Shown here piece by piece: positions 59,757 through 62,700 of a stretch of DNA of 64,000 bases; the first letter of the stretch is position 1; each line of letters starts with the position of its first letter. This DNA is from Gammaproteobacteria bacterium. GTDB lineage: Bacteria; Pseudomonadota; Gammaproteobacteria; Steroidobacterales; Rariloculaceae. Made by a program: the position numbers and the translations under genes. The notes below the pieces were generated by a model, which did no database searches, was not told where the DNA came from, and saw only the letters and a program-made list of their open reading frames with translations. Location: positions 347,061-411,060 of the forward strand of contig JAJEGN010000005.1 of assembly GCA_022819855.1 (NCBI GenBank). The letters are read 5' to 3'.

Positions 59757-62700
59757 TTGCTCGAGCAAGTTTCGAATCTGCTCACTGGTGTGTTCGGCAG
59801 CCGCAATCAGCGACTGCTCAAGACCTATGCCACGCACGTCCGCGAAGCGAACGCGCTTGAACCTGCCGTCAAGGCCTTGAGCGACGAGGAACTGCGCGCG
59901 AAGACCGACGAGTTCAGGGAGCGCTACGCGACTGAGGGCGACCTCGAGGCCCTGTTGCCCGAAGCGTTCGCCGTCGTGCGCGAGGTCGCCGTGCGTACGG
60001 TGGGCATGCGCCACTTCGACGTGCAGCTCGTCGGCGGCATGGCGCTGCACGATGGCAAGATCGCCGAAATGCGCACCGGCGAGGGCAAGACGCTCGTGGC
60101 GACCCTGCCCGCCTACCTCAACGCCCTGACCGGCGACGGCGTCCACATCGTTACCGTGAACGACTATCTCGCGGGGCGCGACGCCGAATGGATGGGGCCG
60201 ATCTACCGCTTTCTCGGTCTCGAGGTCGGCGTCATCCGCAGCGGGCAGACGAACGAGGAGAAGCGCGAAGCCTACGCCGCGGACATCACCTACGGCACGA
60301 ACAACGAGTTCGGTTTCGATTACCTGCGCGACAACCTGGCGTTCAGGCTCGAGGACCGCGTGCAGCGGCGCCTGAGCTACGCGATCGTCGACGAGGTCGA
60401 TTCGATCCTCATCGACGAGGCGCGCACGCCGCTGATCATCTCGGGCCGCTCCGAGGAAAGCACCGAACTCTATGTCCACATCAACAAGCTCGTCCCGAAG
60501 CTCAAGCTGCACACGGTGCCCGACGGGCCGGCCAACGAAGCGATCGAGGCCCCGCAGGTGGAACTCCTCGACGCCAGGGGCAAGGAACTGGGCGCCATGC
60601 CGACCGACGAGGCGCTCGGCCGGGCGCGCGATGGCGGCTACCACCTGGTCGAGATCGAGCCTGACGCGAAGCAACCGCTTTGCCGGCTGTACGTTCCCGG
60701 CGACTTCACCGTGGACGAAAAGTCCAAGCAGGCGCATCTGACCGAGGAAGGTCACGATACCGTCGAGGGGCTGCTGAACCGGGCAGGCATCCTCGGTGAG
60801 GGCGACAGTCTCTACAGCGCGACGAACATCCGCCTGATGCACCACCTGAACGCTGCGCTGCGTGCGCATTCGCTGTTCAAGCGCGAAGTGGACTACATCG
60901 TTGCGAACGGCGAGGTCGTCATCGTCGACGAGTTCACGGGCCGCACGATGCCGGGCCGCCGCTGGTCCGACGGGCTCCACCAGGCCATCGAGGCCAAGGA
61001 GGGCGTCAAGGTCAAGGAAGAGAACCAGACCGTCGCGTCCATCACCTTCCAGAACTACTTCCGCCTCTACGAGAAGATCGCCGGCATGACCGGCACCGCC
61101 GACACGGAGGCCTACGAGTTTCAGCAGATCTACGGACTCGAGGTGGTCGTGATCCCGACGCACGAGACGATGATCCGCGACGACGCGCCCGACCTCGTCT
61201 ACCTCAGCAAGGACGACAAGTTCGACGCGATCCTCGACGACATCGTCGACTGTCACGAACGGCGCCAGCCCGTGCTCGTCGGCACGACATCGATCGAGAC
61301 GTCGGAGTTCCTGTCGGGGCTGCTCAAGAAGCGCAAGGTCCCTCACCAGGTGCTCAACGCCAAGTACCACGAGCGCGAAGCGCAGATCGTCAGCCAGGCG
61401 GGCCGGCCGGGCAGCGTAACGATCGCGACCAACATGGCGGGCCGTGGGACCGACATCGTGCTCGGCGGAAATCTCGTTGCCGAGCGCGCGGATCTTGCGG
61501 ATCCCGACGAGGCCGAGCTCGAGGCGCTGGAGAAGGACTGGAACGGCCGGCACGGCGAGGTGATCGAAGCCGGCGGGCTGCACATCGTCGGCACCGAACG
61601 CCACGAGTCGCGCCGCATCGACAACCAGTTGCGCGGCCGCTCGGGCCGTCAGGGCGACCCCGGTTCGAGCCGCTTCTACCTGTCGATGGAAGACAACCTC
61701 ATGCGGATTTTCGGCGATCCGGAACGCAACAAACGGTTGCTGTCGCGCGCGGGCCTGAAGGCCGGCGAGGCGATCGAGAGCAGGATGCTGTCGAAGCAGA
61801 TCGAGCGCGCGCAACGCAAGGTCGAGGCGCACAACTTCGATATCCGCAAGCAGTTGCTCGAGTATGACGACGTCGCGAACGACCAGCGCAAGGTGGTCTA
61901 TCACCAGCGCACGGAACTCATGGAAGAGGACGACATCAGCGCGGCGATCGAGGGCATCCGCCGCGAAGTCGTGGATCTCACGGTCGAGGAGTACATCCCG
62001 CGCGAGAGCGTCGAGGAACTGTGGGACAAGGACGGCCTGCGCATGGCCATGGAGCGCGACTTCGGACTGCGCATCGACATCGACAGGATGCTCGACGAGG
62101 ACGACACGATCGGCGAGAAGGAGCTCGGGAACCTGCTCGTCAAGGCGGTCGCGGAGAACTACGAGGCGAAGGTTCAGTCCATCGGCGAACCGCTCATGCG
62201 CCGGCTCGAAAAGGAAATCATGCTGCGCCAGCTCGACATGCTGTGGAAGGAGCACATCGGCGCGCTGGACTACCTGCGCCAGGGCATCCACCTGCGCGGC
62301 TACGCGCAGCGCAATCCCAAGCAGGAATACAAGCGCGAGGCTTTCGAACTCTTCAGCAACATGCTCGATCGCGTGAAGCTCAACACCATCAGCATCCTCG
62401 CCAAGATCCAGATCAGGCGCCCCGAGGACGTGAGTGCGGTAGAGCGGCCGGCCGCCGATCAGAGCAAGCTGCGCTTTCAGCATGCCGCGGCGCCATCGCT
62501 CGCCGCGGCCGCACCGCCGCCCCTGCCGCAACAGCCGACACCGGGACAGCCGCTGCCGCCGGGGCAAGCGCTGCCCCCCGGTCAGCCCTTGCCCTCAGGT
62601 CAGCCGCTACCGTCGGCGCTGGGCCAGCGGCGGCCGCCTCCACCCCCGCAGGAACCGGCTTCGCCGTATGTTCGCGAGCAGCCGAAGATCGGCCGGAACC

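Follow-up and report, generated by a model that had tools for sequence, protein, structure and literature searches.

In a stretch of 64,000 nucleotides from a gammaproteobacterium of the family Rariloculaceae (assembly GCA_022819855.1, contig JAJEGN010000005.1, positions 347,061 to 411,060 of the forward strand; hereafter the window), the gene for the protein translocation motor SecA carries an additional segment that is foreign to canonical SecA. The segment lies in frame within the preprotein cross-linking domain (PPXD) and, judged by profile searches and a modelled structure, is a genuine homologue of the N-terminal domain of translation initiation factor 3 (IF3-N), predicted to fold as that domain does. 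Far from being confined to one genome, the insert-bearing protein is the usual form of SecA in the whole family and in several related lineages. As for what the module does, we favour, at odds only slightly better than even (about 0.55), the reading that it is an exapted, putative structural or protein-contact element on the PPXD that may tune the motion of the substrate clamp or offer an acidic docking surface, and that would not act in translation.

An IF3 N-terminal domain within the SecA clamp

A sequence-only reading of this DNA had proposed that nucleotides 60531-60692 (forward strand) encode a 54-amino acid (aa) block, placed in frame within SecA, that aligns without gaps to residues 15-68 of Escherichia coli IF3. 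Translation gives exactly this block, as aa 267-320 of a SecA open reading frame (ORF) of 1008 aa. With PDB chain 8jsg_A (residues 14-73) as the reference, the E. coli sequence used in that reading proved to be correct, and the gap-free comparison, counted position by position, reproduced 22 identities in 54 positions (41%). Scored alone against the Pfam family IF3_N (PF05198), the insert reaches 58.6 bits (E = 6.8e-16), and within the whole SecA it reaches 55.9 bits; the gathering cut-off of the family is 26.9 bits. A profile built from 25 diverse inserts and searched against the PDB retrieved IF3 chains only (8jsg_A at 8e-13, 1TIF at 1.5e-11, Thermus 5LMN_X at 1.4e-10 and, weakly, mitochondrial IF3), and no SecA structure was matched.

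Structure prediction leads to the same domain. In the full-length AlphaFold model of SecA, which is poor as a whole (predicted TM-score, pTM, 0.36), the insert is predicted better than any other part of the PPXD region, with a predicted local distance difference test (pLDDT) value of ~90 and a beta-beta-alpha-beta-beta order of elements. A separate AlphaFold2 (AF2) model of residues 258-330, computed from an alignment of 73 diverse inserts, has a pLDDT of 84-92 over the domain and a pTM of 0.63; it places strands at 18-22, 28-33, 47-52 and 59-63 and a helix at 34-44, that is, a predicted four-stranded sheet with one helix. When this model was compared with the PDB by Foldseek, the best seven matches were bacterial IF3 N-domains, followed by mitochondrial IF3. 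The match to 1TIF has a root-mean-square deviation (rmsd) of 0.9 A over 58 columns (TM 0.76/0.73), and that to 5LMN_X an rmsd of 0.8 A. The insert therefore belongs to IF3_N by the Pfam profile and, on the predicted structure, by its fold.

It is important to note that what was inserted is the globular IF3-N fold alone. The lysine-rich linker of IF3 is missing, the residues CRLYV running directly into PGDFTVDEK, and the Pfam scan of the window SecA returned no match to IF3_C. Neither the linker and IF3_C nor the full set of elbow contacts (R25, Q33 and R66) by which a functional IF3 is recognised is found in the insert. A separate and intact infC is present on another contig, where a 178-aa frame (103.9 bits) comprises the N-domain, the linker and the C-domain; the IF3-N of this host infC is 36% identical to the insert. 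The profile scan, the structure prediction and the search for a separate infC had been named as checks by the sequence-only reading, and all three bear out its proposal that an IF3-N domain has been grafted in frame onto SecA.

The limits of the insertion are given by SecAs that lack it. In every insert-lacking SecA from other families of the order, the alignment to the window SecA halts at 266/267 and restarts at 321/322, so the inserted block is aa 266-321 (nucleotides 60528-60695). It is slightly wider than the 54-aa block first proposed; that the block holds the globular IF3-N fold and stops before the linker has stood. The corresponding loop of insert-lacking SecAs has 13 residues, typically '.Q.EEDGPGD[YF][ST][VI]DEK', and that of the window reads 'KLHTVPDG[PANEA...CRLYV]PGDFTVDEK', with the module exactly between DG and PGD and no added linkers. 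Upstream stands the SecA flank ...RTPLIISG...NKLVPKL, and downstream SecA resumes with an 18-residue flank. The break in the SecA_PP_bind profile falls between positions 19 and 20, positions 20-110 covering residues 303-420; in relatives with a reduced insert, positions 2-19 fall before the insert. This split puts the insertion site inside the PPXD, as had been proposed, in the loop that joins the first PPXD helix to the first PPXD hairpin.

In four SecAs from other families of the order (L108, L114, L117 and L118), this loop takes the form of unrelated length variants of 22-31 aa, without IF3_N similarity, which marks it as a surface loop that tolerates insertions and varies readily in length. 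These variants were considered as deletion remnants of IF3-N and rejected, since they score no better than shuffled loops (z -1.1 to 1.8).

The remainder of the protein is an ordinary SecA. Five SecA Pfam families score above their cut-offs in canonical order (SecA_DEAD 436 bits, P-loop_SecA 292, SecA_SW 222 and SecA_PP_bind 131, together with SEC-C), and the backbone shares 58-75% of its residues with SecAs from across the class. A whole-genome scan found one SecA_DEAD match above cut-off. With a single SecA in a genome that is 97.7% complete, the insert-bearing protein is the housekeeping translocase motor and not an accessory SecA2, and its full domain conservation and sole-copy status suggest ATP-driven translocation with SecYEG. 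The gene is laid out as follows.

59733..62759, forward strand: secA, 1008 aa from the TTG at 59733 (ORF list); the only SecA gene of the genome
59787..61124, forward strand: NBD1 (SecA_DEAD), aa 19-464, split by the PPXD and the insert (Pfam)
60492..60527, forward strand: N-terminal junction, made up of the last part of the first PPXD helix and 'KLHTVPDG', which is the first half of the ancestral acidic loop '..EEDG' (loop compared with 20+ insert-lacking SecAs)
60528..60695, forward strand: IF3 N-domain insert, aa 266-321, 56 aa (Pfam IF3_N, AF2, Foldseek, insert-lacking alignments, dN/dS)
60696..60992, forward strand: remainder of the PPXD after the insert, aa 322-420, beginning PGDFTVDEK (SecA_PP_bind profile)
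61170..61763, forward strand: NBD2 (P-loop_SecA), aa 480-677 (Pfam)
61770..62411, forward strand: helical scaffold and wing domains (SecA_SW), aa 680-893 (Pfam)
62694..62750, forward strand: C-terminal SEC-C zinc-binding motif, aa 988-1006 (Pfam)

Several side observations concern the gene and its surroundings. The start of secA is ambiguous: an in-frame TTG at 59757 follows a GGGG stretch, and the N-terminus that it gives is closer to that of E. coli SecA. Before the SEC-C motif, nucleotides 62445-62687 (aa ~905-985) encode an unusually long, low-complexity C-terminal linker of ~80 aa rich in Pro and Gln, which is also seen in the clade consensus. Opposite secA lies a 937-aa antisense ORF (59754-62567, reverse strand). 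Nothing points to a real gene there; ORFs of such length typically arise opposite high-GC coding regions. The neighbourhood (57182-63980) is ordinary, with a DEAD-box helicase (reverse), an M23 peptidase (forward), secA (forward), a mutT-like NUDIX gene (forward) and zapD (reverse); no secM-like leader gene was found upstream of the window secA.

Distribution and ancestry of the insert

A six-frame IF3_N scan of 60 relatives found the domain inside a frame of ~950-1060 aa, besides infC, in nearly every sampled Rariloculaceae genome (14 genera), complete single-contig chromosomes included. PF05198 is likewise among the precomputed annotations of all 120 best database SecAs. Outside the family, the inserts of Woeseiaceae score 36-37 bits against IF3_N, falling to ~21 bits, below the cut-off, where the hairpin is reduced; SecA inserts of 36-45 bits are found in Cellvibrionaceae bacterium AOL6, in a Marinagarivorans sp. 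and in an uncultured Pseudomonadales isolate. A profile search of 110 genomes of the order found insert-bearing SecA in 6 of its 24 families (all of f1, most of f10, f7, f13, and a single genus in each of f4 and f15), and none in the other 18; besides Rariloculaceae and Woeseiaceae, four families of the order (f4, f7, f13 and f15) thus have it. In a survey of 400 genomes spread over ~260 families of the class, the insert was present in only the two genomes from this order. Five other genomes of that survey have two IF3_N matches each; these turned out to be infC paralogues or fragments and were rejected as SecA inserts. Among 31 relatives of the Cellvibrionaceae genome, 5 carry the insert, which in that family is limited to a small subclade.

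Two broader searches should be read with their limits. A search with the insert alone in a set of 5.8 billion proteins gave 28 candidates, a number that is no measure of prevalence because the variable insert shares few 5-residue words. A phmmer search with the insert against 50%-identity representatives returned mostly short IF3s, the insert-bearing SecAs apparently being represented there by ordinary SecAs.

These searches also brought up other proteins with unusual IF3_N content. One (P0125), an IF3, has two IF3_N stretches in tandem before IF3_C, and in another (P0136) a PP2C-like region runs into IF3_N, probably as an ORF extended past an unusual infC start codon. In each of two genomes (G044 and G426), strong IF3_N matches fall in two separate frames of the size of an IF3, which points to infC paralogues. 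Two multi-stretch matches, P0142 and P0223, were rejected as IF3_N arrays, as they are in fact repeat or low-complexity proteins.

Full-text searches of the literature found no published SecA-IF3 combination and no paper mentioning Rariloculus. This agrees with the statement of the sequence-only reading that no SecA-IF3 fusion is known to have been described, but the architecture is common in the family and is already visible in precomputed Pfam annotations, where IF3_N is listed.

How the insert came to be distributed in this way was approached through two trees. The SecA backbone tree (79 sequences, 802 columns, with the insert columns removed) follows taxonomy. In it, the Cellvibrionaceae SecAs fall in one clade (support 100) whether or not they bear the insert, and the SecAs of Rariloculaceae, Woeseiaceae and the lineages L103+L105, L106 and L107 each adjoin insert-lacking SecAs. 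When the presence of the insert is mapped onto this tree, 8 changes are needed, of which at least 5 are forced by well-supported branches. The domain tree (29 inserts and 59 IF3-N domains, that is, 88 rows and 55 columns) gathers 28 of the 29 inserts in one set (SH-aLRT 95), together with two 'IF3' representatives that are themselves SecA fragments carrying the insert. Over the same 88 rows, the approximately unbiased (AU) test does not reject the monophyly of all inserts (p = 0.42). A search of related genomes and a tree of inserts against IF3 had also been suggested by the sequence-only reading; the former shows the insert to be clade-wide, and the latter groups nearly all of the sampled inserts together.

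A backbone that follows taxonomy, with inserts that cluster together, implies repeated gain, loss or lateral spread. The simplest reading is that an IF3-N segment was captured once, in an ancient event, into secA, and that losses and/or the lateral spread of little beyond the insert followed. Against a single origin it must be said that, with 55 columns and fast-evolving sequences, long-branch artefacts are possible in the tree that suggests it. The identity between inserts of different lineages (20-43%) is like that between inserts and IF3 (26-40%). Independent captures of IF3-N are possible.

Recent capture from the host's own infC was rejected: inserts are 25-39% identical to the IF3-N of their own genome, their composition is ameliorated, and there are no junction repeats, none being found around the window insert. 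Donor-like flanks in the insert-bearing SecAs of Cellvibrionaceae were rejected as well. Both of their flanks are native, the 5' flank being 78% identical to Cellvibrionaceae vs 72% to the order and the 3' flank 62% vs 46-48%, with no sign of a recombination tract beyond the insert. Within that family, one relative (G545) has a SecA (L137) whose insert is very unlike the type shared by L133-L136, L090 and L100. This SecA pairs with an insert-lacking SecA in the backbone tree (support 83), which may point to a further gain of the insert, or to its loss, within Cellvibrionaceae.

Sequence constraint and possible role of the module

In 116 close homologues the insert is never deleted, and its mean identity to the window is 55%, as against 78% for the remainder of the protein. 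In 13 of 14 close pairs (Nei-Gojobori), dN/dS is 0.13-0.42 (about 0.2) in the insert vs 0.03-0.11 in the rest of SecA; the 14th pair is an outlier that rests on very few changes. The insert is clearly under purifying selection, which is relaxed 2-4 fold relative to the rest of the protein. The residues conserved in all insert lineages are those of the IF3-N core, namely N16, I19, the buried A/L face of the helix, and C65.

The surface with which IF3 touches tRNA has fared differently from the core. In IF3, R25, Q33 and R66 contact the elbow of the initiator tRNA, R25 being invariant, and their mutation impairs fidelity and growth (PMC9723500). Position 25 is Arg in 132 of 164 IF3s, a sample that consists of the best matches to the insert and is therefore not unbiased, vs 0 of 44 Rariloculaceae inserts (Glu in 21, Ser in 15), 4 of 26 Woeseiaceae inserts and 0 of 3 Cellvibrionaceae inserts. 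At position 33, Gln has given way to S, E or D. The sequence-only reading had R25 and Q33 as Glu and R66 as kept, which is true of the window; the Arg at position 66 is nevertheless a minority state in the family, found in 12 of 44 inserts, with Gln in 27, and is retained in most Woeseiaceae and Cellvibrionaceae inserts. Other changes are fixed or nearly so in Rariloculaceae, such as R20 to E (36/44) and D52 to H (43/44). The net charge is -5.2 in Rariloculaceae inserts and -6.6 in Woeseiaceae inserts, as against -3.5 in IF3-N. The beta1-beta2 hairpin that bears Q33 varies more than any other part of the module; it is up to ~12 mostly acidic residues longer in some Woeseiaceae, and is reduced to a stub in other Woeseiaceae and in Cellvibrionaceae. 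Taken together, the loss of the R25 and Q33 contacts, a hairpin that is variable or deleted, and the more acidic character argue against retained tRNA or RNA binding. As further observations on the shape of the module, the Woeseiaceae hairpin variants are seen across loci L071-L097, and in L067:2986-3255 beta3 and beta4 are separated by an additional ~17 aa of charged character.

The setting of the module is known from work on SecA. The PPXD, which interrupts NBD1, touches the chain in transit and can swing from near the helical wing domain (HWD) to near NBD2; with the helical scaffold domain (HSD), it holds the SecY TM6/7 loop (PMC5963308). In the window protein, a rigidly inserted, linker-less, acidic module, predicted to be folded, replaces a short acidic loop on this mobile domain. 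We propose that the IF3-N module no longer works in translation and would form a rigid acidic extension of the PPXD surface, riding on the PPXD as it swings between its HWD-side and NBD2-side positions. Carried in this way, the module could tune clamp motion or give a docking surface, for which the partner could be a lineage-specific protein or basic regions of preproteins. A partner contact and an effect on clamp motion were also among the options of the sequence-only reading.

Several observations weigh against this proposal. The poor full-length model does not place the module relative to the SecA surface, SecY loop or groove that it faces. No surface patch is conserved across all three main insert lineages; what is conserved everywhere is the IF3-N core, which would be expected from the mere maintenance of a fold no less than from a shared function. 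The insert is evolving 2-4 times faster than the remainder of the protein, and it was apparently lost, or never gained, in close relatives with no visible consequence. The bias in the IF3 sample behind the residue tallies counts on the same side.

Much of this would be expected if the insert were a functionless passenger in a tolerant surface loop, kept solely since a misfolded or partly deleted insert would harm the essential SecA, so that selection acts on foldability and on no activity of its own. We regard this as a serious possibility, although with clearly lower odds than a structural or contact role. It would account for the conservation of core residues alone across lineages, the 2-4 fold relaxation of constraint, the other unrelated variants of 22-31 aa in the same loop, the free lengthening or deletion of the hairpin, and the sister lineages that manage without the insert. 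It is less easily squared with an insert that is kept in every sampled Rariloculaceae genus and throughout the sampled Woeseiaceae, and whose dN/dS is well below 1. The lineage-fixed surface changes at D52 and R20 suggest a settled local interaction, and the apparent spread into the unrelated Cellvibrionaceae is easier to explain with some benefit.

A new ribosome or RNA contact, which the sequence-only reading had put forward, has come out as the least supported of its options. The module would in this case still recognise a component of the translation apparatus, for example the 30S platform, a tRNA-like elbow or mRNA, and couple the Sec motor to initiation or to ribosomes. The ribosome site of SecA is at the 50S exit tunnel, far from the 30S platform on which IF3-N sits. 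R25, which is required for the tRNA elbow, has been exchanged in almost every insert for Glu, Ser or some other non-basic residue (and is never Arg in the 44 from Rariloculaceae), the Q33 hairpin is variable or deleted, and the net charge is more negative than that of IF3-N. In its favour are the predicted intact IF3-N fold, the R66 kept in the window and in part of its relatives, and the known binding of SecA to ribosomes (PMC5963308). We consider it improbable that a specific contact with the translation apparatus, or with another RNA-protein partner, has been preserved or newly evolved in the module and wires the clamp to translation. A related idea is that the module may be an in-frame cassette that has moved laterally between the essential secA genes of unrelated families and left the flanks native. 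An artefact of assembly (a chimera of secA and infC) or a fortuitous resemblance deserves hardly any credence. The same in-frame architecture is found in >100 independent assemblies, complete chromosomes included, with divergence that tracks taxonomy, which rules out a chimera; the GC3 of the insert is native (0.86 vs 0.90 +/- 0.04 for 56-codon windows of secA), and infC lies elsewhere and is only 36% identical to the insert. Chance resemblance is contradicted by profile E-values of ~1e-16 and by the fold match at an rmsd of 0.9 A.

The structural or protein-contact role on the PPXD remains our preferred reading, and the system is of interest beyond it. SecA ranks among the most thoroughly studied molecular motors, with the PPXD as the moving jaw of its clamp. 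Where entire families have a single SecA and conserve in it a translation-factor domain, nature has in effect run an experiment on how far a clamp surface can be remodelled, and SecA with and without the module provides a handle on PPXD dynamics and partner docking. It is also a clear case of an ancient, universal translation-factor domain exapted outside translation. Since the SecA backbone is inherited vertically, the patchy occurrence of the insert makes one ask by what route a domain could spread in frame, or be removed without damage, in a gene that is essential. A module without any function would still illustrate constructive neutral evolution within a core machine; if a translation contact were true, the mobile clamp of the Sec motor would be physically wired to translation in these lineages.

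Comparison with known systems

Compared with canonical SecA (E. coli, 901 aa; Bacillus subtilis, 841 aa; Thermotoga maritima; structures 2VDA, 1M6N and 3DIN), the window protein has the same domains in the same order and in single copy, and its gene shares the usual gammaproteobacterial setting beside the mutT-like NUDIX gene and zapD. The difference lies in the helix-hairpin loop of the PPXD, which has a few to ~20 residues in canonical SecAs and 13 in close relatives, whereas here it holds a foreign, folded domain of 56 aa.

Compared with bacterial IF3-N (PF05198; 1TIF, 5LMN chain X, 6O6D), the predicted topology is shared, N16, I19, the A/L face of the helix and C65 are retained, and the Pfam score is twice the gathering cut-off. 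Unlike IF3-N, the insert is embedded in SecA instead of forming the N-terminus of an IF3, and it has neither the lysine-rich linker nor the IF3 C-domain. Its R25 and Q33 are replaced, as is R66 in most relatives, it is more acidic, and the length of its beta1-beta2 hairpin differs by lineage. Inserts are also faster evolving, with 20-43% identity between insert lineages vs 47-65% among IF3-N domains.

Surface elaborations of SecA that are specific to certain lineages are known. The VAR subdomain in NBD2 of E. coli SecA is one, and others are the PPXD or HWD repeats and large inserts of uncultured lineages. Like the insert described here, these elaborations are clade-wide, tolerated surface insertions, mostly without an assigned function. 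However, they are SecA-specific extensions or internal duplications, whereas the SecA of Rariloculaceae and its relatives has recruited a domain from a translation factor.

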